DNA from: Candidatus Omnitrophota bacterium
GTDB lineage: Bacteria; Omnitrophota; Omnitrophia; Omnitrophales; Aquincolibacteriaceae
DNA: 64,000 nucleotides
Reading direction: 5' to 3'
Assembly (NCBI GenBank): GCA_035352955.1
Contig: DAOPYQ010000003.1
Coordinates: 140,901-204,900 of the forward strand
Of this stretch, positions 20,670 to 64,000 are shown in pieces; within the stretch, counting starts at the first letter, position 1, and the number at the start of each line of letters is the position of its first letter. Made by a program: the position numbers and the translations under genes. The notes below the pieces were generated by a model. The model was not told where the DNA came from and did not search any database. It saw nothing but the letters and a program-made list of their open reading frames with translations.

Positions 20670-20804
20670 GGATGACGGCAAAAAAAGCCGACGAAAAACA
20701 ATTAGCCTAAGATTTTTCGGCATCCGGCATCCGTCCTCCAACATCCGGATCTTTTGTTAAGAACGCATATTGAAATAGTTTCCGACTTTGATTAGTATGC
20801 CCCC

Positions 20805-33200: not shown

Positions 33201-36200
33201 CGCGCTTGCCGCCGTAACGGAGCTCGCCTTCTTCGCACCGCCCTGATTGGGGATCAACCCCCTCCCCCCTTCAGCGGTCGCCGTCCCCAAACGCGTTTGA
33301 CCGAAATTCCTGCGCTCGACGTCCCTCGCGACATCTTTCCTGATTTGCGCCAGCGCCTTTTCTTCCTCCGGAGTCGGCTCCCTCTCCTTCAATATCTGGG
33401 TCGCCATCCAAAGCGTCTCAACCTCTTTTTTTTGTCCAGGCCATAACCTGAATCCGTACTTTCCGTAGCTTCGATCGATTTTACCGAAATAGCCCACGAC
33501 CCGCGGCTTCACCTTAAGAGCTACAAGTTCGGGATGATCCACCGCCACGGGCTTGAAACCCTTTTTCTGCACAGTAATGACCTGCGACCCCTTTGCGGCG
33601 CCCTCACTCGAAACGCCCGCTGCTGGCGTCTCCGAAACTATAACCTCACGGCTCTCGGAAGATTTCTTCGCATTTTTTTTAGCGTTGTATTCTGCAAACG
33701 TTTTGCGGGTCTCATTCAAAAAATTGCCGGTCCATAATTTTTGGGGCATGCCAATTTCCTGCTGGAGCATTTTGACAAGGCCTTTTCGGACCGTCGGATT
33801 CGTCGTGAGCTCGATCTTTGTTTCGTCCAGCATGTCGGGGTCAATGATCTCCGCAACAACAAGCGCGTTGGCCAACTCATCGATCCTCAATTCGGTCATC
33901 TCCGCCACGGTGTTTTTACCGGCCGGCGCCTTTACAGAAGTTTCGGCGGCTACAACCGCTTTGGCCGTTGCGACCTGCCGGGTTTGCGAAGTCACGGCGT
34001 GATTTTCCCTGAGAACTTTCTGCAACTTGTCGAGGAACGAGGCCACCGAAACCACTGCCGCCGCATTTCCGGAAAACTCCACCGACCGATCAACGGCCCC
34101 CTGGGACGCCCCCTCCGCCCCAACAACCGCCATCGCCACCAGTCCCGCCGCCAGAATCGCCGGATTCAGGAACATCTTGGCGCGGATTCCGTCTGAGATC
34201 TCAACCGCCGGTTCCGCACGTCGTTCGTGGCGAAGCACCGAAGAAAGAGAACTGACCGTTTTTTTATACTGGTTCCGGTTCATGCCAAAATACGCCGGGT
34301 CACGCTTCGTCTTTTCCAGTTGCGCGGCCGGCAACGTCTTGATCTCGGAACCGGCGTGCTGCTCCGATCGCACGGCCGCCTGTTTAAGAACTCGGGCGGT
34401 ATCCACGACGAGCGGATTTACGACCGGTTTTCCGGCCGCGATGCTCTCAAGAGCGGCGGTCATCTCTTCGCGAGTGGCAAAAACATCCTTCGCTTCCGAG
34501 GGCACGATGCCCGGCAATTCCGCAGAAATGATCGCGGTACCGGGACTCAGCACGGAAGAGGCCGCCGGCTCCGCAAGCATCGAACGTTTGGCAGCTCCCG
34601 CGTTATCCAGAAGCGTCGACACGCGCTCCGCGGTAAGTTGTTTCTTGTTCATCAATGCTTTCAGCCCCTCCATGAACCGGCCTAATTCGGATTCAAAATG
34701 CTGCCAGATCGCCTCGAGGCTTTTATCGCGGAAACCGGCGAGTTCCTTGTCGAGGATCCGGAGGATCTCTTCTTTGCTCTTCGGCGCACCTTTCCCGAAT
34801 TTCTCCGCAAAAATGCCGGAGAGCGCGTCAAGGTATTGCGTGTAATGACCGGCCTCGGCGATGCGGCCCCGTCGCGCAAGGTCACGGATCACTTCATCGC
34901 GCCAGCCTTTGATATTCCGGAGAAAATCCGCTTGGTCGAATTCCCCGACCAGCGCACGCGTGGAATGGCGAATGAACGCATCGTAATACGTCGTTTTGAG
35001 GAACTCTTTGTAGGAGACGTCGTTTTTCATGATCTTGTCGTAGTTCCTCTGTCCGGAAAGCTCCGCGATCCGCGGGCTCACGACCACATAATCGACCCCT
35101 TTCTCACGGAACAGCTGCTTGAGGCCTTCGGTGTGAAAACCTCCGGCCACCACGATGGCAGTACGCTGTTCGGAGTTTGGCGTCCGGGAAGACTCCCCGC
35201 GGAGCAGCGCCATCAGGTTTTCATAAAAAGCGCGATCGCGTTCGAGGGCCAACTGATAAAAACCGATCGCCTGCCTGAGGTTTTCGCGAAAGGCCTTGTC
35301 GGCAAGGAGTTCCAGATAAGCGTCCGGCTCCTTCTGGTATCGGGCCAGCTGCTCATGCGTGAGTTCAAGGTTGGTGAGATCCTTCAAAAGGAACAGCTTG
35401 TGATATTTTTCCGCAAGGGCCTTTTCTTCCGGCTTTATGATGAGCCCCCCTTCGATCGCAAGAAGACCGGCCTGAAGATCCGCAAAAAGTTTGCTGCCCT
35501 TCATCGCGGAAAGGGTCTCGGTGTGACCGAGAAGCGCCTGCATCTGGGGCGTCAGTTTGGGCCGGAATCCCTTGGCGCCGCCGAATTCGATCATGTACTG
35601 GAGAAATTTTCCCCCGTCCATCTGGCCGGTGAGGAACTGCTGGAAACGGTTGTAAAAGTTCATCTCATCCTTGACGCCCGAGCCGCGCACAAACTTCGTC
35701 TTGAACTCAACGGCCATCGCCTTGATCATCGGATCAAGCTCTTCTTGTTTCCCCGAGGCAGCATAGCCCACCGAATCAAGAAGCTTCAGGAACTCCTGAT
35801 GCCCGCTTTGGCTGAGTTGTTTTCTGAAGTTCGCAAGATAGATCAGGAACTCGCCAAAGGAGATCTTTTCCGAACGGAAACTTTCGCACCGCTCGTGGAA
35901 TTCGTTCAGCGTGGCGGAGTAGACGGTCAGGCGTTCAGGATCGAGCTTTTTGCGGAAACCCTCCAAGGTCGCAAGCAACGCCGCTTTCGGCTCCTGGGCG
36001 CGAAGCCAGGCGCGATAATTTTCTTCGTAGAGGGACCAATCCTCCATCCCCCGGTAATCCCGCTCGTTCGCGTCAAAGATCGCGGCCATCTGCGGGCCCG
36101 TAAGTTCACCGCGCTCGAGATAGGCCGAAAGGACACGCTGTTTCACGGCCGCGTTCGGGAACATGCGAAGAAGCGTCGGATCAAGTTTCTCTTTAGCGCC

Positions 36201-45998: not shown

Positions 45999-46109
45999 GG
46001 TTTCCTCTCTACTGTTTGATGAATGATGTCACTGGGGGGAAGGAAAAACAGGCTGGAGTATACCATGCCCCGACACGGCGTACAACGCGCAACGAACAAC
46101 GAAAATACA

Positions 46110-47216
46110 TTAATTTTGTGCGTTACCGGACGAGCATTGCCCTGCAATCAGAGCCGATTGCACCGCTGCGATCAATTCCTTGAGCCCACTCCCCGTCGCC
46201 GCAGAGATCTGAACCGCCTCGGGAAACGTATCCCGGTAGCGAAGCTTCTGCGGCTCTGCCAAAAGGTCGGCCTTGTTGAGCGCAAGAAGCCTCTTTTGGG
46301 AAGCCGCGCCGAGTTCTTCGAGCACTTTCTCCACGACTTCTTTATGCTGGAGCGCGTGATCACTCGCGGCATCGACCACGATCAGAATGAGGTCCGCATC
46401 AAGCGTCTCCTCAAGCGTCGCATGGAACGCCTTGACGAGCCCGTGCGGGAGATCGCGGATAAACCCGACGGTATCCGTAAAAAGGATCGCCCGGCCCGAT
46501 TTATCTTCATAGACGCGCGTCTTGGGGTCCAGAGTCGCAAAAAGCCGGTCCTCAACGTACGCGTCCGCACCGGTCAACGCGTTCAGGAGCGTCGACTTCC
46601 CGGCATTGGTATACCCGACGATCGCGACCTGCGAGAGCCCTTTCTGCCGGCGGCCCTGACGGAGCTGCGCCCGGTGTGTCCGGAGCTTTTCGATCTGCCC
46701 CTTGATATGTTCGATGCGGCCGCGGATCTTGCGCCGATCCACTTCGAGCTTCTGTTCGCCGGGGCCGCGGGTGCCGATCCCGCCGCCAAGCCGGGACATG
46801 ATCACGCCCTGCCCGACCAGCCGCGGCAAAAGATATTGCAACTGGGCAAGTTCGACCTGAAGTTTACCATCGCTCGAAACCGCACGCCGCGCGAAGATGT
46901 CGAGGATCAATCCGGTCCGGTCAACCACGCGCACGCCACAATCCTCCTCCAGGTTGCGTGCCTGCACGGGAGAAAGATCGATGCTGAAAATGAGAACATT
47001 CGCGCCGGTCTTCCCAAGCTCCTCACGGATCTCGCCGATCTTGCCGCCGCGGATGTAATGGCTCGGGCTCGGGTGCTGGGCGTTCGCCCTCAGGGTACCC
47101 ACCACCGTCCCGTTCGCCGATTCGGTGAGTTCTTTCATCTCCTCAAAAACCTCGTGGGGATCCCGCTCGTTCTTCGCGCCGGTCTTGACGATAACAAGAA
47201 AAGCTTTATCGGCCAT
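46110..47216 (-). CDS. hflX: GTPase HflX
   Basis: The HflX N-domain is followed by the G-domain VAIVGYTNAGKSTLLNALTG (G1) and DTVGF (G3). Confidence 0.95.
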   Translation of the reverse strand: MADKAFLVIVKTGAKNERDPHEVFEEMKELTESANGTVVGTLRANAQHPSPSHYIRGGKIGEIREELGKTGANVLIFSIDLSPVQARNLEEDCGVRVVDRTGLILDIFARRAVSSDGKLQVELAQLQYLLPRLVGQGVIMSRLGGGIGTRGPGEQKLEVDRRKIRGRIEHIKGQIEKLRTHRAQLRQGRRQKGLSQVAIVGYTNAGKSTLLNALTGADAYVEDRLFATLDPKTRVYEDKSGRAILFTDTVGFIRDLPHGLVKAFHATLEETLDADLILIVVDAASDHALQHKEVVEKVLEELGAASQKRLLALNKADLLAEPQKLRYRDTFPEAVQISAATGSGLKELIAAVQSALIAGQCSSGNAQN

Positions 47217-48342
47217 CGCAACCCCCCGGATATCGAAAGTCGGATGAGGGATAAAGTTTTTTGAAGACCTTCGTCATCCTACATCCTCCATCCTTCATCC
47301 TACTTGAGATTATCATATGTGTAAGAATATAGTCGGAAACGTCCGCAAGGGGCACCCCTTCCGGCCACCACACCCACCGGATCCCGCGTTCCCGTTTGAA
47401 CCAGGTCCACTGACGCTTTGCAAAATGGCGCGTGGTCTGTTTGATCTTTTCTTTAACCTCTCCCACGGTAGCCGCCGGCAGAACACCCGGACGACACCCG
47501 GTGCTTGACCTCGCGCCCACGGAATTTAACACCGGGTGTTGCTTGCCCGGGCCTGACGCGTTCCGCTTCAGGAATTCCAGCACTTCCTTATACCCCACTC
47601 CCTGTAACGCTGTCACGGAAAGTTTCTTCTTCGCCAGTCTTTCGACTTCGCGCACCAGTCCCCTGCGGAACATGCGATCCACTCGCTTGTTGATTTTTTG
47701 ATAGAGCGCCGGCCGGTCCCGGTGGATCCCGATCACAACCGGCTGGTAACCCAGCTCAACTAACCCCGGAGTTTTGGCGGACGATTTCGACGGCTTTTTA
47801 CCGGAAACAAGATAGATCTCAAGCGCCCTGATGATCCTCCTCTGATTATCAGGCCCGATGGCTTGGGCACGCTCCGGGTCGGCCTTCAGAAGGCGTTTGT
47901 AGAGTGCCGGAAGCCCCTTCTTTTGGGCCTCCGACTCAAGTTTCCTGCGGATCGCGGGATTGGCCCCCGGCTGAGGTGAAAGCCCCTCCAATAGAGCCCT
48001 GACGTAAAAGCCGGTCCCTCCGGCGACGATCGGAGTCTTCCCGTTCTTGACCACGTCCCGGATAGCTTTCAAGGCAAATTGGCGGAATTTAAAAACAGAA
48101 AAAGACTTCGTGGGCGGGACAAGATCGATCCCGTGGTGCGGCACACCGCGGCGCTCCTTGGCGGAAAGTTTCGCGGTCCCGATATCCATCCCCTGATAGA
48201 CCAGCATCGAATCCGCGGAGATCACTTCCCCGTTCATGCGCTTCGCCAAAGCAACGGCAAGATCCGATTTCCCCGACGCCGTGGGACCGACAATGAACAA
48301 GACCAAAGGCGGTATCAAAGTATCAAAGTGTCTCTGTGTCAA
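47206..48342 (-). CDS. miaA: tRNA dimethylallyltransferase
   Basis: The P-loop is FIVGPTASGKS. The IPP transferase motif is ISADSMLVYQGMDIGTAKLS. The TTG start called by the ORF track lies inside a palindromic repeat, so the true start is probably a few codons downstream. The C-terminal tail is encoded by heptamer repeats and overlaps hflX by 11 nt. Confidence 0.9.
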   Translation of the reverse strand: MTQRHFDTLIPPLVLFIVGPTASGKSDLAVALAKRMNGEVISADSMLVYQGMDIGTAKLSAKERRGVPHHGIDLVPPTKSFSVFKFRQFALKAIRDVVKNGKTPIVAGGTGFYVRALLEGLSPQPGANPAIRRKLESEAQKKGLPALYKRLLKADPERAQAIGPDNQRRIIRALEIYLVSGKKPSKSSAKTPGLVELGYQPVVIGIHRDRPALYQKINKRVDRMFRRGLVREVERLAKKKLSVTALQGVGYKEVLEFLKRNASGPGKQHPVLNSVGARSSTGCRPGVLPAATVGEVKEKIKQTTRHFAKRQWTWFKRERGIRWVWWPEGVPLADVSDYILTHMIISSRMKDGGCRMTKVFKKLYPSSDFRYPGGCDGR

Positions 48343-48350
48343 AGCTTTGA
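48311..48350. repeat. left arm of IVS-like palindromic element (GTATCA/GTGTCA units) flanking four-helix-bundle gene
   Basis: GGTATCAAAGTATCAAAGTGTCTCTGTGTCAAAGCTTTGA. It contains the perfect 12-nt palindrome TCAAAGCTTTGA. It shares the 15-mer GTATCAAAGTATCAA with the element at 50874-50944. Confidence 0.6.
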
Positions 48351-48731
48351 ACGAACCCCGCGAATGAATGCCATTAGGAGCAGGCCCAACTCACGCCGAC
48401 TTCTCTCAAGGATCTCATAATCAGCATCGCTTAAGTACGTCAGATCCCTCGAAAACTCGAGCAAATACTCCGACTCCACCAAGGATCGGTTGGCAATATT
48501 AAGGAAGTTCAAAAAATCCTTTTTGCTGACGCTCGCCTGTCCCTCAACAATATTCAAAGCAACAGAAAGTGCCGCACGCCGAAGCTGCGAAGTAATCCCA
48601 TATAACTCTTCGCGGGGAAACTCCTTTGTGAACCTGTAAACCGCCAGCGCATACTCATTCCCTTTTTCCCAAACCCTGAGTTTCTTATAGCCTTTTCCAC
48701 TCACCGGATTTCCTCTGACACCGAAAGACAT
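48339..48731 (-). CDS. four-helix-bundle protein (23S rRNA intervening-sequence protein family, TIGR02436-like)
   Basis: MSFGVRGNPVSGKGYKKLRVWEKGNEYALAVYRFTKEFPREELYGITSQLRRAALSVALNIVEG...SLVESEYLL matches the family signature (L.VW.KA..L...IY..T..FP..E.YGL.SQ.RRAA.S...NI.EG). The 28-aa extension in the ORF track reads through a repeat and is discarded. Confidence 0.85.
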   Translation of the reverse strand: MSFGVRGNPVSGKGYKKLRVWEKGNEYALAVYRFTKEFPREELYGITSQLRRAALSVALNIVEGQASVSKKDFLNFLNIANRSLVESEYLLEFSRDLTYLSDADYEILERSRRELGLLLMAFIRGVRSKL

Positions 48732-48746
48732 TGATACCCTGACACG
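48714..48746. repeat. right arm of IVS-like palindromic element flanking four-helix-bundle gene
   Basis: TCTGACACCGAAAGACATTGATACCCTGACACG. Its reverse complement carries GGTATCAA...GTGTCAG in the same order as the left arm at 48311-48350, giving an imperfect inverted repeat about 400 nt apart. Confidence 0.55.
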
Positions 48747-48747
48747 T

Positions 48748-50409
48748 TTACATACTTTCCGGCTGGGAGATGCCGAGAAGCGCGAGACCGTTGCGGAGAA
48801 CGATCCGTGTCGCATCGGCCAAAAGAAGACGCGCTTTCGTCAACTCCGGATCCTCGGACACGATGCGGTGACAGCTGTAGAACTTATGAAAACTCGCGGC
48901 AACCTGACGGAGATAATCGGAAAGACGATACGGCTCGAGCGCCCGGCTCGCCTGGATCAGAAAATCCGGGAATTGCGCGAGGCACCCGATCAGCTCCGCC
49001 TCTTCCGGTGCGGCAAGCAAGTCGAGTTTCACATGGGTCGTGATACTTTTCCCCGAAAACTTCAGCAAACTCGCGATCCTGGCATGGGCGTACTGGAGAT
49101 AAAAAACCGGATTCTCCTGGGACTGTTCTTTCGCAAGGTCCAGATCGAAATCGAGGTGGCTTTCCTGCCGCCGCATGACAAAAAAGAAGCGTGTCGCATC
49201 GACGCCGACCTCCTGATAAAGTTCACGCAGCGTGACAAATTCCCCGGCGCGCGTCGACATCCGAACCGGCTGACCTTTCCGGAAAAGCGTCGTGAGCTGG
49301 ACGATCCCGATATGGATGGCCTCCGGCGGATAACCGAGCGCCTGACACGCGGCTTTGAGGCGCGGGATATAACCGTGGTGGTCCGGACCCCAGAGGTTCA
49401 CGATCATGTTGTGGCCGCGTTCATATTTGGAGAGATGGTAAGCGATATCCGGCGCGAGGTAGGTGTATTCCCCCGTCGATTTGCGGACCACGCGGTCCTT
49501 GTCATCCCCGAAATCCGTGGAGCGGAACCAGAGCGCGCCTTCACTTTCAAAAAGATAGCCGCGCTCCTTCAGGACCTCGAGCGCGTGATCGACCGATTTT
49601 TTGACATAGAGCGTCTTTTCGCTGAAATAATGGTCGAAGTGGACATGCATCTTGGCGAGATCTTCTTCGATCCACGCCATCATGGTCTTGACCGCGTAAT
49701 GGCCGCAATATTCGACCGCCTTTTCTTCCGTTTCCTTTAAAAGAGAATCCTTCTTCTCTTTCTCGATGATCGTGCGGGCAATATCGCGGATGTATTCGCC
49801 CTGGTACCCGTCCTCCGGGAACGGCTTCTCGATCTCCAAGAGTTCGTTGTACCGGACCCACACGCTTTTCGCCAAAAGATTCATCTGGCGGCCGGCGTCA
49901 TTGAGATAATATTCCGGATGGACCGTATGGCCCGTGAACTTCAGGATGCGCGCGAGACAATCCCCCACCGCGGCCTGGCGGCCGTGCGCGATCGTGAGCG
50001 GCCCCGTCGGGTTCGCGCTCACAAATTCCAGGATAACTTTCTTTCCCTTGCCGAAAGCGGAACGGCCATAGTCCTCGTTCTTTTCATGGATCTCCACGAG
50101 GAGCGCTCCAAGATCTTCTTTTTTGAGAAAAAAATTGAGGAATGCGCCGCCGGCAAGCTCGATCTTTTCGACGGGCGACTTTTCGCCGGTCTTCGCGACG
50201 AGCATGGGAAGGAGGACGTTTGCGATATCCGCGGGTTTCTGGCGGGTCACTTTGGCGAGGCGGAAAGCGACATTGCACGCCAGGTCTCCGCGACCGGATT
50301 CTTTGGGCGGATGGAGATCATAACCGAAATCGGCCGGCTTGCTTACCCCCTGCCCGGCGCAATAGGCATCCACCACAGAATTGATAAGGTCTTCGATTTT
50401 TATTTTCAT
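48748..50409 (-). CDS. argS: arginine--tRNA ligase
   Basis: The N-terminal anticodon-binding domain is followed by the class I HIGH region (SANPTGPLTIAHGR) and C-terminal DALR. The true start is MKIKIEDLIN at 50409. The 24-aa extension in the ORF track reads through a GGATGAC repeat. Confidence 0.93.
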   Translation of the reverse strand: MKIKIEDLINSVVDAYCAGQGVSKPADFGYDLHPPKESGRGDLACNVAFRLAKVTRQKPADIANVLLPMLVAKTGEKSPVEKIELAGGAFLNFFLKKEDLGALLVEIHEKNEDYGRSAFGKGKKVILEFVSANPTGPLTIAHGRQAAVGDCLARILKFTGHTVHPEYYLNDAGRQMNLLAKSVWVRYNELLEIEKPFPEDGYQGEYIRDIARTIIEKEKKDSLLKETEEKAVEYCGHYAVKTMMAWIEEDLAKMHVHFDHYFSEKTLYVKKSVDHALEVLKERGYLFESEGALWFRSTDFGDDKDRVVRKSTGEYTYLAPDIAYHLSKYERGHNMIVNLWGPDHHGYIPRLKAACQALGYPPEAIHIGIVQLTTLFRKGQPVRMSTRAGEFVTLRELYQEVGVDATRFFFVMRRQESHLDFDLDLAKEQSQENPVFYLQYAHARIASLLKFSGKSITTHVKLDLLAAPEEAELIGCLAQFPDFLIQASRALEPYRLSDYLRQVAASFHKFYSCHRIVSEDPELTKARLLLADATRIVLRNGLALLGISQPESM

Positions 50410-50488
50410 AAAACCGGATGACGGATGACGGAAAACGAATAGCGAAAGACTAAACGACCTCCGCCATCCTCTATCCGACAACCTGTCT

Positions 50489-50830
50489 TTAGATCTTTTT
50501 TGCTTCTCCCCACAGCCGCTCGAGGCCGTAGAATTCGCGGGTTTCCTTGTAGAAAATGTGCGCGACGACCGGCCCGAAGTCCAGGAGCACCCACTTCCCT
50601 TCCTGGAGCCCCTCGACGTGAAGGGCCGCCATCTTGAGCTTTTTCATCTCGTCCATGATGTGGCTCGCGAGGGCTTTGACGTGACGGTCGCTGTTCCCGT
50701 GGGCAATGATAAAATAATGGGAAAAACTGGAAAGCTTGGAGATATCCAGGACAAGAATTTCTTCCGCTTTCTTGTCTTCCGCAAAGGTACGTATCAATTC
50801 AGCTATTTTTTTGGGTTGCAAGGGACTCAC
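50489..50830 (-). CDS. rsfS: ribosome silencing factor RsfS (Iojap)
   Basis: EEILVLDISKLSSFSHYFIIAHGNSDRHVKALASHI...WVLLDFGPVVAHIF is the conserved RsfS core. Length is 113 aa. Confidence 0.9.
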   Translation of the reverse strand: MSPLQPKKIAELIRTFAEDKKAEEILVLDISKLSSFSHYFIIAHGNSDRHVKALASHIMDEMKKLKMAALHVEGLQEGKWVLLDFGPVVAHIFYKETREFYGLERLWGEAKKI

Positions 50831-50873
50831 CTTTCCTTAAAAAGTTGCGGAATTATAGCATAAAAAAATACAA

Positions 50874-50944
50874 GTGTCAGAGTATCAAAGTATCAACGTG
50901 CTGCTTTGCATTTTTGATACTCTGATACTTTGACACCCTGACAC
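50874..50944. repeat. cargo-less IVS-like palindromic element (23-bp stem with 2 mismatches, 17-nt loop)
   Basis: GTGTCAGAGTATCAAAGTATCAA-cgtgctgctttgcattt-TTGATACTCTGATACTTTGACAC(CCTGACAC). It lies between the rsfS start and the ogt stop. The last ~18 codons of ogt are encoded inside it. Confidence 0.65.
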
Positions 50945-51400
50945 TTTTGCACAGTTTTTTTCGTTCGCCAACAGCAAGCATTTCCATTGCTTCCCGGCCG
51001 AATAGTCTCCCAGACCACCTGCTGCCGGAACCACGCGATGGCACGGGATAACCACCGGCAACCGGTTCTTCCTCATGGCGCTCCCGACCGCGCGTGCGGC
51101 GCCGGGATATCCCGCCCTCCTCGCAAGCTCCCCGTAGGTCACAACGCTTCCGGCAGGCACCCTTTGAAGCGTGCGGTAAACCTTCTTCTCGAAAAGCGTG
51201 CGACCGGTGAGATCGTATTTCATCCCCTTCGCCGCGGCAAGAACCCTTCCGAGAAATGGACCCGGCCTTAAGGAAAGTGGCTGACGCGGGAAGCGGACGA
51301 CACAAAGCCCCTTCGCGCTCATCTCAAGGAGAAAAGTTCCCGCACGGGTTTTTACAGAAAGCGTTTTAAGACCTTTTTTCGTAGGGCGTTGCACGTTCAC
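50885..51400 (-). CDS. ogt: methylated-DNA--protein-cysteine methyltransferase
   Basis: The active site is VIPCHRVV. The DNA-binding helix is YGELARRAGYPGAARAVGSA. The C-terminal tail (CAKVSGCQSIRVSK...) is encoded by the palindromic element. Confidence 0.85.
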   Translation of the reverse strand: MNVQRPTKKGLKTLSVKTRAGTFLLEMSAKGLCVVRFPRQPLSLRPGPFLGRVLAAAKGMKYDLTGRTLFEKKVYRTLQRVPAGSVVTYGELARRAGYPGAARAVGSAMRKNRLPVVIPCHRVVPAAGGLGDYSAGKQWKCLLLANEKNCAKVSGCQSIRVSKMQSSTLIL

Positions 51401-51413
51401 CGCTGCCAGGATC

Positions 51414-53063
51414 TTAGCCCTGAAACCTGTTGGTGATCGGCATGCGTCGGCCGAACCAGGCCTTTTCGGTCACGCGAAGGATGGGAGGCGTCTGGCGACG
51501 TTTATACTCATTGTGGTCGACCTTGCGGAGAGTGTCATTCACGATCTCCGGCGAAGTCTTGTTCGCGAGTTTCCGGACGATCGCCCCGCCGCTCAAGTTC
51601 TTTTCGATATAAAGCCGAAGGATCGCATCAAGCGTCTCATACGGCGGAAGAGAATCCTGGTCCTTCTGGCCGGGCCGGAGCTCCGCGGACGGCGCCTTGG
51701 TCAATGTCGCTTCCGGGATCACAGGACCGATCGAATTCCGGTACTGCGCGAGACGGTAGACATCAGTCTTGTACACATCTCCGATCACCGCAAGCCCGCC
51801 CGCCATGTCCCCGTAGAGCGTGCAATACCCCATGGCAAGTTCGGATTTGTTGCCGGTCGTCAGGACAAGCCGCCCTTCATCGTTCGAAAGGAACATGAGT
51901 TCCATGCCACGAAGCCTCGCCTGAAGATTTTCCATCGCAACCGTGGGACGCTCTTTTGCCGCGATCCCGGACGTTTTGAGCCAGGTCTGATACTTCTCGC
52001 GGATCGGGCGGACTTCGAATGGGATCTCGAGCGCCTTGGCCAAAGACTCGGAATCTTTCCAGCTTCCTTCGGAAGAATAAGGACCGGGCATGGTGACACC
52101 CTTGACCGCCTCGGGTCCGAGCGCATCCACGGCGATGCAGGCCACCAGCGCGGAATCAATGCCCCCGCTCAACCCCACGAGCGCTTTTTTAAAACCGTTC
52201 TTCCGGAAATAGTCCCGGACCCCCATCACCAGCGCCCGGTACATCTCCTCCACACCCGCCGCAAGACCCGGTCTTACTTTTTCCGCAAGACACGGTCTTA
52301 TTTGGGTGAAAAACAAGCCTTCCTCAAACGCAGGCGCACGAAAAGAAACGCGACCGCGCGCATCGGTCATAAAACTCCGACCGTCAAAAAGCAGGTCGTC
52401 CTGCCCTCCCACCTGATTAACGTAGAGAATGGAAAAACCGTAATCCCGCACATGCCCTTTTACGAGCGCCTCGCGCGTCCGGGCAACGTCTCCGTAATAA
52501 GGGGACGCAGAAAGGTTAAGAACCAGGTCCGCCTTTTTCTTTTTGAGCTCCGCAAGCGGCTTCACGTCGTACCGGGCATCCCAAATGTCCTCACAGATCG
52601 TCAGACCGACTTTCATTCCCTTCCACGGAACGACCACGGTCCCGGATCCCGCCTGGAAAAAGATCTCCTCAAGAAATACGTCATAAGTGGGAAGCAACTG
52701 TTTGTGATAGACCGCGCGGACCTTGCCCCCTTCGAGCCAAGCCGCCGCGTTATAAGAATTTGAAATTTGAGATTTTAAATCAGAAACAGCCCGATCAATA
52801 AAACCGAGGACAACGGCGACACGCTTGCCTTTCGTCGCGAGGGCAATGCGCTTGAGTTCCTTGAGCCCCGCATCGACAAACGCCTTCTGATTGGCCAGGT
52901 CCCACACCGGATAGCCGCAAAGCGCGCCTTCCGGGAACACGAGAAGGTCGGCTTCTTGCTGCTCGGCCTTATCGATCCAGGCAAGGATCTTCGCCGCGTT
53001 ACCGGCATAGTCTCCTACCGTGGGGTTAAGTTGTCCCATAGCGATTTTGAGAGGGATTTTCAT
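51414..53063 (-). CDS. nadE: glutamine-dependent NAD+ synthetase
   Basis: The N-terminal CN-hydrolase domain is ADLLVFPEGALCGYP. The C-terminal NAD synthetase PP-loop is LVGLSGGIDSALVA. Length is 549 aa. Confidence 0.95.
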   Translation of the reverse strand: MKIPLKIAMGQLNPTVGDYAGNAAKILAWIDKAEQQEADLLVFPEGALCGYPVWDLANQKAFVDAGLKELKRIALATKGKRVAVVLGFIDRAVSDLKSQISNSYNAAAWLEGGKVRAVYHKQLLPTYDVFLEEIFFQAGSGTVVVPWKGMKVGLTICEDIWDARYDVKPLAELKKKKADLVLNLSASPYYGDVARTREALVKGHVRDYGFSILYVNQVGGQDDLLFDGRSFMTDARGRVSFRAPAFEEGLFFTQIRPCLAEKVRPGLAAGVEEMYRALVMGVRDYFRKNGFKKALVGLSGGIDSALVACIAVDALGPEAVKGVTMPGPYSSEGSWKDSESLAKALEIPFEVRPIREKYQTWLKTSGIAAKERPTVAMENLQARLRGMELMFLSNDEGRLVLTTGNKSELAMGYCTLYGDMAGGLAVIGDVYKTDVYRLAQYRNSIGPVIPEATLTKAPSAELRPGQKDQDSLPPYETLDAILRLYIEKNLSGGAIVRKLANKTSPEIVNDTLRKVDHNEYKRRQTPPILRVTEKAWFGRRMPITNRFQG

Positions 53064-53104
53064 GGGGAGAAGTATATCACAAGGACTCTAGACAGCCAAA
53101 GGGG

Positions 53105-53135
53105 ACAGGCAGTCGATGAATGCCCGTCCCCTCTG
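53105..53135 (-). terminator. possible terminator hairpin downstream of giant gene 2
   Basis: GGGGACAGGC-agtcgatgaat-GCCCGTCCCC is a 10-bp stem with 1 mismatch. On the minus-strand transcript it is followed by a weak TTTGGCTGTCT. It lies about 75 nt past the stop. Confidence 0.3.
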
Positions 53136-53208
53136 TGGGAAACTTACTACGCCGAGGCACCTGCGCTCAATGCGCAAGTACCTCGACGTGCAATCCTTAG
53201 GAAAATCA

Positions 53209-56200
53209 CTATGCCGAGGCCGCGGTACGGCGCGCACCCGCGAGACTGGCGGTAAATTCCGTCAAAAGCGCGGTCACGCCCAATTCGTCCATAGACGCAA
53301 AATCGAGTTTGTGCAATTCAATAAAGTTATCGTCCAGCAGCTTGACAGCCGAACCGACCACGCAAGCCGTTTGCCCAAGGGCACCCGCCCCCGCCTTGAC
53401 GCGAAGAACACCGCTTTTCTTGCCCGCACGGATCCGACTGACCTCCGAAAGCTCCGGCACATTCCCGTCCGTGACAAAGGCCATCGGCACAACCTTCTGG
53501 TCGCGGACCCTGTTGAACCAGCCCAGGAGATCCGCCGCGTTTCTGAAATGCACGACCTTGAGGTTTTTATCCAGAACGTCCGTCGCACCGGCCGCAGCCA
53601 ACGCCAGCTTAAAGTTCAGCACGTCCGTATCCCGGACACCGACAAAGACCAGGTAGCCCGTCACCTTCGGGTCATGGCGAAATAGCGGCACCTCCGGCAA
53701 GATGTCCCTGACATCCGGAATTTTTGTCCGCTGGTCAATGACAACACGCTCGACGGAACTCGCCCAAGAACGGTCGATCAAGCGGACCGTCTCCGGCCGT
53801 GTCTTCCGGAGAGCTTCCGGCACCGGAAGGACCTCGCGGTAGTGAACCGTCCCGGCAAAAAGCTCCGGCAAGATCCTGAACCGATAGTCCGGAGAAGCGT
53901 AAAGCGTCGGAGACACCACACTCCCCGCCACCCCCCATGCCACCCGGATCTTCGTACTGAGACTGCTAAGGTCAGGCATCGCGATCTGCGGGATCACAAG
54001 CTTCTCGTTATCCATCCACAACTCGGCACGAAGTTTATTTTCCGTGCGTTGCGTTTTATTTCTCTTCAGAAGCGTAAGGATCGCTTCCCTGGTTTTTTCC
54101 ATACTGGCTATTTCACGAGCAAGCTTTACATAAGCATCATTCTTCGAAGCCAAGCTATGGGCGAGCACAGTTTCATATTCCCCGGTCCCATAAACACGTC
54201 CTCGATCACCGGGTCCTCCCGACACCACGATTCCGGAGCGTCGAGGCGGAATCCGCATGAGTTCTTCTTTTTTGACCTGAAGCTCAACACGCAGAACCTC
54301 GGAAAGCGTTTGCAACGATGAAAATGAGGAAGGATCGTTCAGCGCCTTCTGGAATTGCTGTTCCGGTACCGACCGCAATTCCATCCGGCCAAAGGGACCC
54401 TGGATATCGGCGCCCATATCTTCATTGACCTGGGCTGCATCATCGTCCGAACCGGACGAAGCGACAGCTTCCCTCGCGGCGCGTTCCGCCTCTTCACTCG
54501 CCACCATGGAACGATACGCCTTCACCGCAGCCACCGAAGCGGCCGTGTGGTACTTCTCCAATGCGGTTACAACCAGATCACTGATGGACCGGTCCTTCAA
54601 AGCTACGAGCAATGCGGGAAGGGCTTGGGTTGCGGCATGCCTTGAAAACATCGTGGCAGCCTTCCGGCGTCGCTCAAGGGACGCATCGGTCAGCCAAGGG
54701 ATCAGCCGCCCGACGATCTCGGTATCCCCGATCTCCCAAAGGGCCTCCGCGATCGCAAGCCACACATCGCCGGCCTTTTCGCTATCCAGAGCGCTATGCA
54801 ATGCGGACCCCACCGAGGGATCTGCGGAACCCATCGAGGGATCTTTTGTCATCGCCAACGCCGCGGCCGCAGCCTTCCGGCCCCGGTCATTCTCATTCCC
54901 CAATGCCGAGAAAAGTCCGGAAAACTCCTTTTTACTCCACAATATTCCGACCGCGATCTCCCGGGCCAAGCGATCGTTATCATTCAGAGCCGCAAGCACC
55001 AGAACAGGAATAACCTTGGGGTCATTGATTGCGCCGAGCGCTTTAAGCGCTTCGTAACGGATAGAAACCCGGCGATCCGTCGAAGCCCGGGCCAACACAT
55101 CCACCGCGCGCGGATCTCCGATCTCGCCAAGTTTTTTTGCCGCAGCGGTCCTGCGATCCTCACCGTAATGGTTGAACCAGCCGTCATAAAACTTCGGCTC
55201 CACATCGTTCATCGCTCTCCGGAGCTGATCTTCCTGAGCCCTTGCCGGCCGGAGTGGCGCACGGGACCCTGCATCCTTAGGAGCCTCCGCCGCACTTTCC
55301 TGCGGCATCGGACGGGAACCTTCCAGCGTGACCGTCAATTCGCCCGCTTTGCCCGCGGAAATAAGCGCGCCGTCAAAAGGTCCGCCACCACGCCCGTCGC
55401 CCACCGACTCATAAGTGGGATAAACTTGCGGGACCTCGACATAACTGACCTGAACCTGTTCTCCCCGGATCAAACAAGACCGGAGCGTATTGATCTCCGC
55501 ACCGTTCAAAACATTGTAGTTGCCCTTCGAGTCATTGATCCATTCGAAGTACCGTTGCATCTCCGTCAGCCGCGGGTCCCGAAGCCTCAACAATTCACCG
55601 GCCGCCTGGATCCTTACCAAAGAATCCGTATCGCCGAGGATCCCCACGAGAGCCAGAGACGCCTTTGTCCCGAGAGCTTTGACCACGGCGATTCTCACCT
55701 CGGACGATGGGTCCTTCAAGGCCTTCGTCAACCTCATGATCGCATACGTATCCTCCATCGCGACAAATTGAGCAAGGTCCTGCGCCGCAGAAACTCTGCG
55801 TTTGATGCCATTTTTTACAAAGATACGGTCCCAAACCTGCGGCTCCAGAGAATCCACAAGGGCTTCATAAGCCTCACGCGCCTCACGGTCACGCACGTCA
55901 TCGGGAAGACGGTTGTCATCCTGATCGATATACCTTCCCCTCAATTCCGCTCGGGAAGACTCATCGCCATCCGCACCGTTAAGGTTTGCTTCGCTTGCTC
56001 GCTCGCGCTCAGCATCGGCATATTGTTGGATTTCATCCATAACCTTATAACCTTGGCGCCGAACAGGCTGTGCGAAACGGGCCATTAAAGCTCTTGAACC
56101 CGGCCGATCAATGGTCCATACACGGAAAGTCCTAGATACTTCAAACCCCCCCTCTCTTTTAGACATGTCCTGTGCTTTATCAACCAACGCCAAGGCTTCC

Positions 56201-59200
56201 GAAAGCGAAATATCCGGAGCTTCTGTCATAATGCTATCGAGGATAGGATTCTGGCGCCGCTGCTCAGCTATCAACTGACGTTCTTCCCCGGCAAGTTTCG
56301 CGGCACGGACACGTTCGCGCACTTTGCTTGTGATCCACCCGGCAATACCACCCACCACAGCTGACGCGACGGCAAAACCCGCGATCATAAGAATCTGATG
56401 TTCGCTCCAGGCCGTCTGCAATGAGCTGGCGACACCCGCCGCACCGTTTTGTCCCGCCATAAGAGCCAGAGGAAAAGGATTCATCAGTGGATGAGTGCTA
56501 CTACTTCTCCCATCTTCTCCGGGTCTAAACTGACCCTCATCATCCGAACTGGTGGTTTCATTAATTGCCGATTCACGCTCCCGGGCGATCTTTTTTTCTT
56601 CGACATATTCTGCATACCTTGCCGGCTTTAAAAGACGCCAAAAAACCGGGATCATAAAATTCGCAGCTGCCGCAAAGGCCACGGCGGCAGCGACACCCAT
56701 CGCAAATGCAAGCAGGATCGTCTCGGCGCGTAAGAAAGCCGGAACGGTTACCATCAAGTAGACGCCAAGAACAACCCCTGTCGCAAAGCCAACAAACCCG
56801 CTAATCACCGAGCCCATCACGATAGTATCCTCGGGTGTTCGTTGTTTCGCCTGGATACCGGACGAGTCTTGATCCTGCATCGCGGAGCGACGTTCGGAAC
56901 GAGGTGAGATATAGCTGGAGTTCAAGAGTGTTCTGATTTGGTCGGGTGTAAATTCGTTCTGAAAATCGGTGAACGTTTTAACACCCGGTGCGGCGTAGGT
57001 GGCCGAAAAACTATCGAGCCAGGGCTGATAATTGACCTGAAAACCAAGCACAGATAGATACCTCTGCGTGTAAAATGCCATGGACGCCTGGCTCAACTGA
57101 GCCTTGGCAAAACCTGTCAATAAGCCCTGGGATTCCAGACCGCTCAGAGCCACGCCGTTAAATTCGCTTGTAAAGGCAGAGTAAGGCCGCCATCCGTAGT
57201 TGGGCTCGATGTAATAGGGCGCAACACCGCTCACCCACCCCAGCGACGCCTCCACATACCCGCGGGCAAAGAGGTATTCGTGAATAAAATTGGACATCGC
57301 GGGGAAATCCCTCTGAGCCAGGTCAAACCGCGTCGCCTCATCGATCGGCAGAACCTCGCGGGTGCTCAGATTGACCTTTTTGAACATGGAAAGCGAGGTC
57401 CTGATGATGGCATATCCCGGCATCAACGTCAGGTCCACGGGATTGAGTGACGCTTCGGCAAACCGTGAATCCACGATCCAAGTGGCCGCGCCGGTGACAA
57501 GATCGACAATGCGTATTTGCGGATCCAATCCGGTTCCCGCCCGGACCTGATCAAAGATCAGCGTCTTCCCGTCTGGAGTAATGTAATAATTGAAAATGTA
57601 ACCCAAGGGAACGGAGGGTCCGCGGGTCCACGACATCAGATAGATCTCCTGACCGGTCAGGAGATTCTTGATATAGTGATCGGTCCCATTGTACCGGTCA
57701 CGACTCTGAACGGCAAAATTCGGATCGACCTCAAGCCTCTCCCACCAATTCGGCAACGCCGGAGGGACAAACACCACACGCGCGAACTCCTGTTTACCTG
57801 AAGCGGCCGTTGAAAAATGCAAAGTCTGAGCGTTGGTGGCCGGCTGGATCTCCCCCGCGATCCAATTTGTCGCGGGAAGCGTGGGAGAAGTCATGACCTG
57901 GTAATTCCCGTGCAAAGACACCTCTGCCGTTATTTGGCCCGGGCCTTTGATCCCGGTAACAATATCTCCAAACGCCGAAGCCCCCATGAGTCCCGCCGCA
58001 AGGGCCAGCGGAAGCGCATAATAGTCCCCGACCCCCGGTCCCGAATAACCGCTATCCGAAGGTCCGTCATCATCGTCCGACGCGGCAATCTGCGCCTCTC
58101 GCTCTGCCCTTTCTCTCTTTCGCTCAGCTTCCAAAACTTCCTGATTTGCTTTATAACTTTTCGGGTCGAACAATCTCCAAAACCCGTCGCAGATTAGCGC
58201 CCCCGCGATCGCGCCCATAAACGCCAAAAAAAGACTCCCAAAGATTGCCGCCAGAAAAAAATCCTTTATCCCACCCGCCATGACCACGAAAGGCAACATA
58301 TGCGGTTGATGAAAAAGCAACGGTACGGCAGAAACGACCCCGAATAACGGACCGCCGAATAAAAAGACTTCATACCAAAGACCGAGCCGGCCGCGTAAAT
58401 GCACCTGTCTTTCAGCAACCGTCATCGGCTTCCGCAGCTCCGCACGATCACTCCCGGCACTCTTTTTGAGAGAACGGCTAAGCTTGTTCAGTTCAAAATC
58501 CACCTGCTCGCGGCTCCTCCTATGCGAAAAGATCGCGGCCAGCTTCCCTTCAAAATCTTTCATATCCTGTTGACGGGCCCCGGAACCAAGCGCCTTAAAA
58601 CCGGCCGAACGGATATAATCCCGCCATACTTCGTAGGCGTGGTCCGAATTCACCTTTGCGTATTTGGGAAGGGCTACAAGAAAACCTTCAAGAAGCGCAC
58701 GCTCATCTTCGGAAAGGTCCGCCCAGGCACGCGAATTCAGCAGCGTCGTAAGGGCGTCCACATGAGGATCAAGTCTGGCAATATTTTTCTCCGTTGCCCA
58801 GAATGCTTTCCATACGGCCAGTAAGGCGGCCTGTTCTACATTCCCCCGGGCATTACGGTATCCCGCGGTTTCCTTGAAACGGAGGAACCGTTCGGCATCA
58901 CTCTCATCCATGAATTGGGAGAAAGGAACGCCCACCAATTTTTCCGCCGGCAAACCCACCTTGTAATTGGCCGCATCACCGCTTCCGGCACGCAAGCGCG
59001 CGTCTCTTTCGTCGAATGTCCGGCGACGATTTCTCTGGGCTTCCGTCAGCCTGCGTTCGGCGCGATCAACCGCACTATCGCGCAGCTCCGCCCTGATCTT
59101 CTGGGTAACTTTTTTAGAAGAAGGCTTCACCTGGAAACGGTTATCCTGATACTCCGCCATCTGCCGGAGCGGCGTGACATGGCCGGCGCGTTTAAAATCA

Positions 59201-62200
59201 TGAATCAGATCGCCCTGACCCGCCACATAGGCTTCGTACGGGTTGTAATAAGTTTCGCGATAGAGGATCCCCTCATCCAGCAACCGGTCATTTTTCGCCA
59301 TCAATGCGATCGAACGCACCCCGGGAATCGTGGTCGCGTTCCCGGACGCCGTGTTCGGCGCGATCACGTCCCCCGCCTGCCCGGACCGTTGCGCCAGCAC
59401 CTGGATGACCATCGGAAGTTCAGGAAGCCCATCGGCATTGTCAAGCATCCGGTCCATCAGTTCTTCCGCGTTCGCGATCTGATACAGCTTGTTATAGGGA
59501 TCATCCTGCAATCCCGTTTCCGCCTTCACCCGCTGTTTGAGCTTCCGGCGAAGCCGCTGGGCATCCTCGGATTTCAACTGATCGCCTTCCACCAATGCGG
59601 AAAAAGGCTCCGGAATTTCTTCACTCCCGTACTCGAGCCCGCCCTTCTCCCCCGTAAAATTCTGGAGGACGACGTGAGCGGAATTCGCTTTCATGGTCTT
59701 CCGGAAATATTTGTACGCCGCGTGAGGCCGGGAGCCCGCCGCAGATACCGGATCCAGGAGCGTCAGGTCATTGACCCGGTGGATCGCGAAAGAACGGCCG
59801 CCTTTTTTCAGAAGATACCGGAACGCCGGGACCGCCATGATCCGGAAATCTCTTTCGGCGTCATCCCACCTGTACGACATGTACGGCAAAGATGCGTAGA
59901 TCAGATTGAACCCGTGGTTGTAGCTTTTGTCGTTACGCATGTAACTGAAGACGAAACGCTTCTCGGCATCGCGCCATTCAAACCCGCTCGGCTCGTCGTC
60001 ATTCATCACAAAAACAATATTTTCTTTGTCTAGTCCGAAAAACTGGTTCTCTTTAAAATCCCTGGCCACATCGTCCTTGATGTTCGGATTCACGCTGATG
60101 AAAACCTTTTTGCTCGCAAGGGCGTTTCGAACCAAGGCCTCTGTCACGGTCTGATCCACCCCCTCATGCCGCGCGTACTCGACGGCCTGCCTGCGGATCC
60201 CCTCGACCAACGCCAGCATATGCCGTACCCCGAGCCCAAGATGCCGGGCATTCTCCGGAACCGGCCGTTCCGCTTCCGCGATATAGATCCCGAGTTCTTC
60301 GACCTCTTCGGTCAGCCGGTCGTATTCATCCCCGGAAAGTTCAGGGTCCGAATCTTTCGCGCGATTGAATTTCTTGCGCTCTTCCTTAACGCGCTTGAGT
60401 TCCGCCTGAAGGCGGGCCAATTCTTCTTCCTCTTTGGCGTCGTCGATCTTGTTCTCGAGATCCTCCTGCGCCATCTTGAGATCGAGGTAACGGGATATCT
60501 CAGCGCCAAGATCCGTCTCGAGAATCCGGAGACGGGTTTTCTGTTTTCTCTTTTCAGCCTCGAGAGCCGTCTTATGCTCCTTAAGAAGGCGTATCACTTC
60601 CCAAACGTCAAGGTTCCACATCCTGAATTTCCTGACCGTGACGGGATCCTTTTCGTTCTCCTTCGAAATAATGCCGATCTTGACAAAGCTCTTAAAGAGA
60701 CGGTCCGCCTTCCCGGCGGCATAGATGAATTCGGCCTTGATCCCCGAAACCGCATCCTTGGCCGCATGCCAGTAATATTCCTCAGGGACATCCTCCATCC
60801 ATTCGACATGCCCCGGCTTGATCAACCCTTTCTTGCTCTCGAACTCGCGAGCGTTCATTTTCCCGGCTGGAATTGAGGGATCATAAAATTTTTTCAGGAC
60901 CTCATGCATGTTCAGGCGGATCGGTGCCGTCTTCCGGGCGGACACTTCAAAAATCTTGTATTCGATCTCGTCCGACCACCGGACGTCATTGCTGCGAATC
61001 ACCCATTCGCGGGCCGCATACTGGATCGCCGCTCCGGCGAGGAGGGCCGCTTTCTCGTAGGGCTTCATCGTCTCAAAGCCGGGGTGCAAAACCACGATGG
61101 CATTGCGATAAACGTTCACGACCGAATCCGCGCTCTCACCCACGCGGTACACATGGTCCAGCACTTCGACATTCAACCGTTTGAAAGCTTCGTACACGTT
61201 CACGGGAACGGAAGTCCCGGGAATGACCACGTTCAAGCCCTCCAAAAAAGGCGCAACTTCGGCCGCAAGCTTTTGCTGGGCTTCTTTCTTCTTCCCGGCG
61301 TCGCCCGGTTCGCTGTTCTCAAAAATGATGTCCAAGTTCTGGATCATATCAAGCGCCGCCGCGGCGTTCGCCTGAAGCTGCACACGATTAACCTCTTGAT
61401 ACGCGGAAAAAAGAATATCCAGCAGGATCCGCCGTTTTTTCAAATGCTCCGTCTCATAATATTCCTTGTAAAGAGCCACCACAGCCGCCGGATCGTTGCG
61501 TTTCTCCAGAAGGTCCTGGACTTCGTACCCGAGCACTTGGCCCAGGAACCAGCGGGCCGCCGACCGCGCATCCGCATAACCCGAATAAAGCAGAACACGC
61601 GCGTCCTCAGCCATGATCGTTTTCACGGGATCCGCGACGGACTGATAGCTTTTCCAAACATCCCCCGCCCGGTCATCCTTCCCGAAAAACCGCTCCATTT
61701 TGTGATTACGATGGTGGGACGGATCTTTCGGAAAATATTCGATCTTCCCACGTCGTTCCGCGCGGGAGCTGACAGTCGCCAAAGCCTTCGAAGAGATCGG
61801 CACGGTCTGGAAAACGGGAATGCCAAAATCAGGACTAAGATCGAGAGACGTTGAAAAACCGTTGCGGGAAGAAACAGGCTCGACGCTGATCCTTTCCAGA
61901 ATCGACCGGCGGACACCGCCGAACCACGCCTGGGCCTGATCGATCCCCGTCACGGCGACACGCTGGGCGCGGTCAACGACCCCGAGCAGCGCATTCATCT
62001 GAGAGGTTTCGAAATCGCGCGAGCCTAAAATGGAATGGAGATAGACCTCATGGTCGCGTTTGGAGACTTCACTGATACGCGGAGTGATCTGGAGATAGGA
62101 ACAATTCCTCGCCCGCGCGAGAGCCTTAAGACCCTCGGCGTGGAACCCGCCGGTCACGATCACGGCGCGCTGCTGCTTCGTCTCGCCCATTTTGATAAGG

Positions 62201-63696: not shown

Positions 63697-63718
63697 AGCC
63701 TTGGATTCCTTTTTTAAT

Positions 63719-63735
63719 TTAGATTTTAAATCTAA
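63719..63735. promoter_or_regulatory. perfect palindrome TTAGATTT-T-AAATCTAA 23-41 nt upstream of giant gene 2 start
   Basis: Two 8-bp perfect inverted arms with a 1-nt spacer, in the AT-rich leader. Candidate operator or promoter element. Confidence 0.3.
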
Positions 63736-64000
63736 CAAGAATCTGAAAAAGGTTAACACGCACTGATGGTTTTGAACAGAGGTTGACGCAAAAAAATCTT
63801 TATAAATCGTTTAGTGGTAAAGAGAAACCGCTTCCCTTGAACTTCCCGGTTTTTAAAATGAAGAAATGGGACATGAAAACCCGATTTATAGCATCTTCTA
63901 ACAATTAAAAATTCACGACGCTACAATGAAGTCCGTTATGCCGACTTGCACTTGCCCCTGTCGGGCAAGTACTAACGACATACGGACCAATGAAGTCCGT

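Follow-up and report, generated by a model that had tools for sequence, protein, structure and literature searches.

A window of 64,000 nucleotides from an uncultivated Candidatus Omnitrophota bacterium (the whole stretch of DNA that was analysed) carries two members of one repeat family built on the hexamer GTRTCA and a variable spacer, usually of 2 nt: a cassette between argS and miaA enclosing a gene for a four-helix-bundle (4HB) protein, and a gene-less hairpin between ogt and rsfS. The overall explanation that we judge rather probable is that the cassette is akin to the intervening sequences (IVSs) of rRNA, placed at an operon junction, with the 4HB cistron looped out and the 4HB protein reading the repeated units. 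The genes around the repeat blocks are all on the minus strand of the window, referred to below as the gene strand. An earlier note on this DNA had described three related repeat blocks made of GTATCA/GTGTCA units; the blocks are real and all of its sequence statements hold, but the repeat is better defined as an 8-nt unit, GTRTCANN (GTRTCA plus two variable bases), in runs of three or four. Serial GTRTCANN units occur in the 64 kb only at 48312-48344, 48713-48745 and 50874-50944. These three blocks hold all nine window matches to GTRTCANNGTRTCA at no more than one mismatch, for an expectation of 0.27, and the 15-mer GTATCAAAGTATCAA, reported earlier as shared between blocks, is indeed exact at 48312 and 50882, with eight matches in the window at up to three mismatches against 0.66 expected. 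The imperfect inverted pair that had been placed at 48311-48350 and 48714-48746 is seen as the arms 48312-48344 and 48713-48745, each of 33 nt, 76% complementary and separated by 368 nt. The cassette consists of the following parts.

48713..48745, minus strand: upstream arm, on the gene strand GTGTCAGG GTATCAAT GTCTTTCG GTGTCAGA G, four 8-nt units.
48339..48704, minus strand: 4HB gene, 121 codons plus a TGA stop, PF05635/TIGR02436 ('23S rRNA intervening sequence protein').
48312..48344, minus strand: downstream arm, on the gene strand CTT TGACACAG AGACACTT TGATACTT TGATAC, four inverted units.

The fit between arms and genes is tight. The upstream arm, which is conserved in the orthologous loci L125, L128 and L130, begins 2 nt past the argS stop codon (48748-48750), and its last unit overlaps a GAGGAA Shine-Dalgarno-like stretch of the 4HB gene. 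At the other end, the TGA stop of the 4HB gene forms the opening three bases of the first TGACAC unit (48341-48336), and the downstream arm abuts the start of miaA. The last unit of that arm holds an in-frame TTG (48318-48316), 12 codons ahead of the MiaA P-loop, which may be the miaA start codon; TTG 48306 and TTG 48300 are the other candidates. No promoter of its own is visible in the cassette. The downstream arm, which contains TTGACA, was considered as a miaA promoter and rejected, since it has no acceptable -10 and leaves no room for a leader. The 4HB gene starts at GTG 48704, with ATG 48731 as an alternative. The arms had been said to bracket precisely a gene of 130 codons; the bracketing stands for the PF05635/TIGR02436 open reading frame (ORF), but its length is more likely 121 codons because NCBI annotates that GTG as the start of a 99%-identical protein (P0002). 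The protein scores 110.7 bits against PF05635 (cut-off 33.8) and 106.9 bits against TIGR02436 (cut-off 24), profile searches matched no other family, and its relatives in the PDB are 2GSC (XCC0516; E = 4.2e-16) and 2RLD (E = 3.7e-10), with five chains per entry. Among the gene ends that the insertions were thought to have rewritten, the tail of ogt is a true case, whereas the miaA start at 48342 and the N-terminal extension of the 4HB gene are artefacts of taking the longest ORF; the candidate miaA TTG nonetheless lies inside the last unit of the downstream arm.

The same layout recurs throughout the 4HB family. From 79 metagenome loci gathered by protein alignment alone, 110 nt on each side of the gene were inspected, and the arms were scored by ungapped comparison of the upstream flank with the reverse complement of the downstream flank. 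An inverted arm pair scoring at least 12 was present at 56 of 68 distinct 4HB genes (82%), compared with 9 of 171 other genes on the same contigs (5%), so that the IVS-like stem with an ORF in its loop, proposed earlier for this one locus outside rRNA, is supported and extends family-wide. At 53% identity or more, nearly all 4HB genes have GTRTCA-type units before them and inverted TGAYAC-type units after. Among 47 distinct GTRTCA-type cassettes the modal arm has four units and 36 use a TGA stop, which opens a TGAYAC unit in 26 (31 if units with one mismatch are admitted); in several, the GTG start codon is the GTG of the last GTGTCA unit. A unit logo, drawn from middle units that had been left out of detection, gives G 99%, T 87%, R 96% (with A and G in near-equal shares), T 94%, C 99% and A 94%, followed by a variable spacer that is mostly AA or GA. 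The hexamers recur with a period of 8 nt at most loci, 7 nt in L162, L163 and L176, and 9 nt in L164. Relatives at 35-49% identity are bracketed likewise, by other units of 7-8 nt.

L192, L203 and L208: AGTGACG / AGTAACA.
L197-199: CGTAAGT.
L200: TTTTCAGT.
L191: TTAGCTT.
L204: GGTTAGCT.
L049: GGTATAG.
L050: GGTCCCG.
L124: GACAGAT / ATCTGTC.

In L124, a metagenome-assembled genome (MAG) of Elusimicrobia, the 4HB gene (7215-7592) has GACGAAT/GACAGAT units upstream and five ATCTGTC units downstream. Cassettes share the orientation of the upstream neighbour in 49 of 55 cases and of the downstream neighbour in 50 of 57, and they sit among housekeeping genes, as in the order accA-4HB-pfk-4HB-pfk of L212. 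There, at 958-2869, two same-type 4HB cassettes on one contig alternate with two phosphofructokinase genes, and in each of these cassettes a further, G+C-rich hairpin separates the upstream arm from the start codon. No rRNA was found near any of 40 GTRTCA-type loci. Some distant 4HB genes without obvious arrays (L193, L201, L205 and L207) lie just 3' of an archaeal-type large-subunit rRNA gene, and another distant clade (L197-L199) sits upstream of tmRNA at a distance of about 70 nt; stable-RNA operons seem to attract the family. It has also been reported in rRNA insertions of CPR (candidate phyla radiation) bacteria and between cas genes (PMC3936711). Viral contigs yielded no relative of this 4HB clade and a single typical palindromic array among 86 pattern matches, and hence no evidence that phages carry the cassettes. 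Membership of the family in the HEPN superfamily was looked into and found no confirmation.

Comparison of orthologous loci indicates an insertion that has since been kept. In three related Omnitrophota species (L125, L130 and a third locus) the order nadE-ogt-rsfS-argS-4HB-miaA-hflX is retained with 4HB proteins 83-87% identical, and the short contig L128 has argS-4HB-miaA; four-unit arms are found on both sides of the gene in the window, L125, L128 and L130. Among the four 4HB orthologues synonymous sites are saturated (pS 0.64-0.75) and dN/dS is 0.04-0.10, and such strong purifying selection implies a functional protein. Since the arms have persisted through saturating divergence, the hexamers must be held by selection on their sequence rather than by recency. 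Two distant Omnitrophota whose ArgS is 62-64% identical (L220 and L221) have no cassette, and there argS and miaA overlap by 4 nt (ATGTGA); a third, L219 (75% identical), has a 140-nt argS-miaA spacer with neither a 4HB gene nor units. Judging from the empty L220 and L221, the cassette was inserted exactly at the stop/start junction and is an old insertion into a former 4-nt overlap. The view of these elements as insertions, put forward earlier, gains from these empty sites and from near-identical cassettes in unrelated surroundings: L151 and L161 are 95.8% identical from outer arm edge to outer arm edge, with flanks only 27% and 44% identical. As identity ends at those edges, the unit that duplicates or moves includes the arms. 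Neither the L151/L161 boundaries nor the argS/miaA junction show any visible target-site duplication. The suggestion that the elements are mobile in this genome finds no support in the argS-miaA cassette, an old insertion that is fixed across four or more species with saturated synonymous sites.

How such a cassette might work can be proposed from its folding and from the behaviour of rRNA IVSs. The duplex of the two arms has a predicted energy of -39.3 kcal/mol on the gene strand and -26.9 kcal/mol on the opposite strand, compared with -17.7 +/- 3.5 kcal/mol for shuffled sequences, and the minimum-free-energy fold of the 465-nt sense RNA closes both arms. The base of this stem sets the argS stop beside the miaA start, and part of the ribosome-binding stretch of the 4HB gene lies within the stem. 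In the proposed scheme the operon transcript would include the cassette, the arms would pair into a stem of about 30 bp, the 4HB cistron would be looped out, and the argS stop would be brought next to the miaA start. By the precedent of the rRNA IVSs, the stem would be an RNase III substrate and the 4HB cistron would be released; the stem may also gate translation of the 4HB protein, whose ribosome-binding stretch it covers. That protein, in turn, would read the repeated units in its own arms and in gene-less hairpins. A reader of the hexamer is suggested because the core is fixed across phyla although pairing alone would permit compensatory drift, and because the two arms match imperfectly (about 85%) and differ by many transversions; the encoded 4HB protein is the simplest candidate because the unit changes with the protein clade, even within one phylum (the window versus L049). 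Solved relatives of the protein are five-chain rings, and a ring reading a short core with a flexible spacing of 7-9 nt would fit single-stranded nucleic acid better than B-DNA.

The second member of the repeat family shows the same units without a gene.

50915..50944, minus strand: 5' arm, on the gene strand GTGTCAGG GTGTCAAA GTATCAGA GTATCA, four units.
50896..50914, minus strand: loop of about 17-19 nt, without an ORF.
50874..50895, minus strand: 3' arm, on the gene strand TGATACTT TGATACTC TGACAC, three units.
50852..50880, minus strand: promoter-like site ahead of rsfS, CTGACA-17 nt-TATAAT, with TG upstream of the second hexamer.

The compact hairpin with a 17-nt loop that had been described at 50874-50944 is confirmed, with 23-nt arms (50874-50896 and 50914-50936) that are 91% complementary; an alternative register gives 24-nt arms, 92% complementary. 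It folds strongly as RNA: the gene strand reaches -40.9 kcal/mol (z = -9.0), and the opposite strand -35.2 kcal/mol. The last 20 codons of the ogt ORF are hairpin sequence, the stop codon being the TGA of the middle TGATAC unit (50887-50885), and the Ogt domain stops at residue 147-148 of 171; orthologues of 155 and 166 amino acids have no hairpin. The promoter-like site has 11 of 12 matches, is the best in 47000-52000 and has its first hexamer within the last hairpin unit, and the TATAAT upstream of rsfS is retained in L125 and L130, both of which are without the hairpin. A 29-bp stem is followed by TTGTATTTTTTT, with a run of seven T after the stem; a terminator scan made no call, loop and stem being beyond its limits. 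The hairpin may now serve as terminator and promoter spacer. In a comparison without the 99%-identical strain L218, whose contig begins inside argS, it was found in no species other than that of the window; among the related species the ogt-rsfS spacer cannot be aligned, and the spacers of the orthologues are too diverged to delimit the insertion.

A cargo-less copy beside a cassette had been claimed for this window, and gene-less hairpins of the same unit family occur both here and in many genomes. In a pattern scan with one genome per species, at least 120 loci matched, and among the matches listed at least 22 are forward-then-inverted GTRTCA arrays with short loops, none of them next to a 4HB gene. 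These listed arrays, often several per genome, come from Nitrospirota, Nitrospinota, Omnitrophota, Desantisbacteria, Planctomycetia, Victivallales, Anaerolineae and Bacteroidales. A cassette and a gene-less hairpin occur together in at least two assemblies and apparently also in a third lineage: L056 and L125 have the assembly CAYZYT01 in common, and L093 and L210 are on a single Nitrospirota contig, while the solo hairpins L042, L075 and L088 (Desantisbacteria MAG) have unusual 'ac/gc' spacers in common with the cassettes of L212, whose 4HB protein is assigned to Desantisbacteria by its NCBI name. In the Bacteroidales MAGs L010, L027, L045, L067, L068, L105 and L123, inverted GTRTCA-type arrays surround an A+T-rich palindromic core of 60-170 nt (726 nt in L105), which replaces the short loop or the 4HB gene. 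These A+T-rich-core arrays are a different cargo or a different element.

Several observations weigh against an explanation in terms of a looped-out cistron and a unit-reading protein. Across the family only about 85% of arm positions match and transversions are numerous; pairing is therefore not the sole constraint on them and perhaps not the main one. The G-U versus A-C asymmetry, which would be proof of a stem at the RNA level, is strong for the window's cassette and holds over whole flanks (42 of 59 loci, p = 2e-5), but in the arms only it is not significant across the family (31 versus 24 loci, 83 versus 65 transitions), and is treated here as undecided between action at the RNA level and action at the DNA level. 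Cleavage of an mRNA between cistrons has no obvious benefit, unlike cleavage in rRNA, and we know of no sequence-specific nucleic-acid binding mode for the 4HB fold. The co-variation of unit and protein clade could come partly from common descent of the whole cassette, and the 64-kb window contains a single gene-less copy. Beyond the argS-miaA locus, a broader proposition is advanced as a tentative one that may well prove wrong: that PF05635 proteins, including the ORFs of rRNA IVSs, are sequence-specific readers of short tandem units, each clade co-evolving with its own 7-9-nt unit; that they would act on their own inverted arrays and on dispersed gene-less hairpins, as transcripts or as single-stranded DNA, at the junctions of housekeeping operons and rRNA; and that the partnership would resemble that of REPINs (hairpin-forming pairs of repetitive extragenic palindromes, REPs) with RAYTs (REP-associated tyrosine transposases), a ring-shaped helical protein replacing the transposase.

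The main rival, compatible with the RNA model, takes the parallel with REPINs and RAYTs at the DNA level: the cassette would be a mobile element of the REPIN type or resembling a miniature inverted-repeat transposable element (MITE), the arrays serving at its ends as binding sites of a trans-acting recombinase or transposase, or of the 4HB protein on single-stranded DNA hairpins, with gene-less copies as non-autonomous derivatives and RNA folding incidental. This is possible but on the whole unlikely. It accommodates cassette boundaries at the outer arm edges and the 95.8%-identical cassette in unrelated flanks, the existence of both filled and empty orthologous sites, the species-specific gene-less hairpin, the several gene-less copies per genome in many phyla among the matches listed, the lack of a family-wide strand asymmetry in the arms, and the parallel with RAYT genes, which are flanked by REPINs in a type-specific association (PMC3337134). 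However, neither the cassette nor the genes within 10 kb include a transposase or recombinase, no target-site duplication turned up, and the 4HB family has no known catalytic motif; the 'autonomous element' with a MITE-like derivative suggested in the earlier note is not upheld. The fixation of the cassette at one site through saturating divergence also tells against a mobile element, and both the co-orientation with neighbouring genes and the start and stop codons within units point to a life at the transcript level.

It is improbable that the unit runs are double-stranded DNA operators of a small regulon, with the 4HB protein as a DNA-binding regulator. A conserved hexamer with a variable spacer, clade-specific units, and the fact that the best promoter-like site, ahead of rsfS, has its -35-like hexamer in the last unit of the gene-less hairpin would all suit such a regulator, but periods of 8 and equally of 7 or 9 nt would place the sites off one face of B-DNA, and the arms are inverted and anywhere from 17 to 400 nt apart. 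Most cassettes, moreover, lie inside operons, tight on stop and start codons and with no room for a promoter, and the same architecture in rRNA IVSs is an RNA stem demonstrably cut by RNase III. Ordinary host hairpins (terminators or REP-like stabilisers) unrelated to a 4HB gene that happened to land in a loop, as might be imagined from the seven-T run after the gene-less hairpin and from another palindromic heptamer family in the window, (C)GGATGN, with four to five sites and no 4HB gene nearby, are very improbable and largely refuted by the arms at 82% of 4HB genes versus 5% of neighbours, by a unit that follows the protein clade across phyla rather than the host, by GTRTCA arms on the GTRTCA-clade gene in a genome where GGATG arrays are commoner, by arms that move with the gene, and by units that include start and stop codons.

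The genes around the repeat blocks are in the order nadE, ogt, rsfS, argS, 4HB gene, miaA, hflX, and the four upstream of the cassette are placed as follows.

51414-53063, minus strand: nadE.
50885-51400, minus strand: ogt.
50489-50830, minus strand: rsfS.
48748-50409, minus strand: argS, stop codon 48750-48748.

Within 10 kb the genes are nadE, ogt, rsfS, argS, miaA, hflX, tal-pgi, an amidase gene and a DUF2339 gene. An Rfam scan of the window found no family above threshold, and hence no rRNA in the window; run on the window and 60 related loci, it placed no known RNA family at the arrays. The second palindromic array family, with a 7-nt unit (C)GGATGN and inverted NCATCC(G), is found at the following positions.

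20656-20746: (C)GGATGN array.
47268-47300: (C)GGATGN array.
50416-50483: (C)GGATGN array.
62291-62357: (C)GGATGN array.
62666-62721: (C)GGATGN array.

GGATGNNGGATGNNGGATG has 13 matches in the window at no more than two mismatches, compared with 0.21 expected. These arrays lie at gene junctions, one of them taking up the rsfS-argS spacer and stopping 5 nt short of the argS ATG, and no 4HB gene is attached to any of them in the window. At 47206-47300 a GGATG array encodes a C-terminal tail of MiaA of about 30 amino acids, absent from four orthologues, that reaches the hflX start; this is the same running of an ORF into a repeat array as in ogt. Within miaA, 47446-47577 holds an in-frame stretch of 34 codons in a variable MiaA loop, which exceeds the closest orthologues by 27 codons; the 132 nt around it form a strong hairpin of -57.6 kcal/mol (ACACCCGGTG...CACCGGGTGT). 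L125, L130 and L220 lack the stretch, and L219 has a shorter one. Between nadE and a HEAT-repeat ORF of 3516 codons, the spacer (53060-53215) holds two long perfect hairpins, not composed of tandem units, at -75.4 kcal/mol for 156 nt. Further heptamer runs (GCAACGN / ACAACGA) are at 4383-4406, a palindrome (-38.4 kcal/mol) that lies within a listed long ORF, and at 46082-46103 in the hflX-to-tal/pgi spacer. There are two giant ORFs, 21249-36611 (5120 codons) and 53209-63759 (the 3516-codon ORF with HEAT repeats); the latter, as called, includes in its 5' part the GGATG arrays at 62291-62357 and 62666-62721, which may mark its true start near 62240.

Part of this picture was known already: rRNA IVSs carrying 4HB ORFs, their excision by RNase III, heptamer repeats in one IVS, and scattered operon 4HB genes. 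In the rRNA IVS of Leptospira and Coxiella burnetii, terminal inverted repeats form a long stem whose loop contains a PF05635 ORF in the sense direction, and the window cassette, with 33-nt arms and a sense ORF in the loop, compares well with the usual IVS stem of about 20-30 bp. The Coxiella IVS in 23S rRNA has tandem GACAGAT heptamers in its 5' arm, and the first of these repeats is where RNase III cuts the 28-bp terminal stem enclosing the S23p (4HB) ORF (PMC4990558). The GACAGAT heptamer also flanks the non-rRNA 4HB gene of L124, and because a tandem-unit arm is thus shared by Coxiella and L124 the analogy is more than resemblance. Unlike an rRNA IVS, the window cassette lies between protein-coding genes of an mRNA operon (argS and miaA) and not in an rRNA helix, its arms consist of four 8-nt units, and a gene-less copy is nearby. 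The Coxiella ORF is, moreover, reportedly decaying and probably untranslated, whereas that of the window is under strong purifying selection. With REPINs and RAYTs the cassette shares a small gene flanked by inverted repeats that recur as dispersed intergenic gene-less hairpins, and a gene type paired with its own repeat type and conserved in place (PMC3337134). The window protein is, however, a four-helix bundle and not an HUH/Y1 (IS200-like) transposase, the 4HB repeats are tandem 7-9-nt units and not REP palindromes, and RAYTs are single-copy whereas several same-type 4HB cassettes are possible on one contig (L212).

Other likenesses are more partial. Avd of diversity-generating retroelements, which acts on nucleic acid together with a reverse transcriptase, is a homologous four-helix bundle, and matches to PF22296 (bAvd) are recorded for many relatives, but the window protein scores only 29.4 bits against NF033474, whose cut-off is 80. 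None of the genes within 10 kb is on record as a reverse transcriptase, in a check that did not extend to template and variable repeats, and to our knowledge Avd genes are not flanked by unit arrays. Cyanobacterial STRR (short tandemly repeated repetitive) sequences are tandem heptanucleotide repeats in intergenic DNA, of unknown function, and the window arrays are likewise tandem intergenic units of 7-8 nt. TRAP, a homo-oligomeric ring that reads GAG/UAG repeats with a short core and variable spacers, offers a model for a hypothetical pentameric 4HB ring on GURUCA, although its fold is unrelated to 4HB. In a literature search covering few subscription journals, no account was found of inverted unit arrays as a general hallmark of non-rRNA 4HB genes, of clade-specific units, of dispersed gene-less hairpins, or of junction insertion with empty sites.

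The family of '23S rRNA IVS proteins' is very large and spread over many phyla, and we know of no function assigned to it since 1993. If the rule holds, each PF05635 member brings with it a candidate ligand in the form of its own flanking unit array, and the family's open function becomes a simple question of binding or cleavage. IVS-type elements would then be a general class of cassettes at the gene junctions of essential operons and not an rRNA curiosity. This would account for one class of the tandem and palindromic repeats that lie between genes in uncultivated phyla, and it would flag systematic annotation errors at such arrays in the form of extended ORFs and of borrowed stop and start codons.

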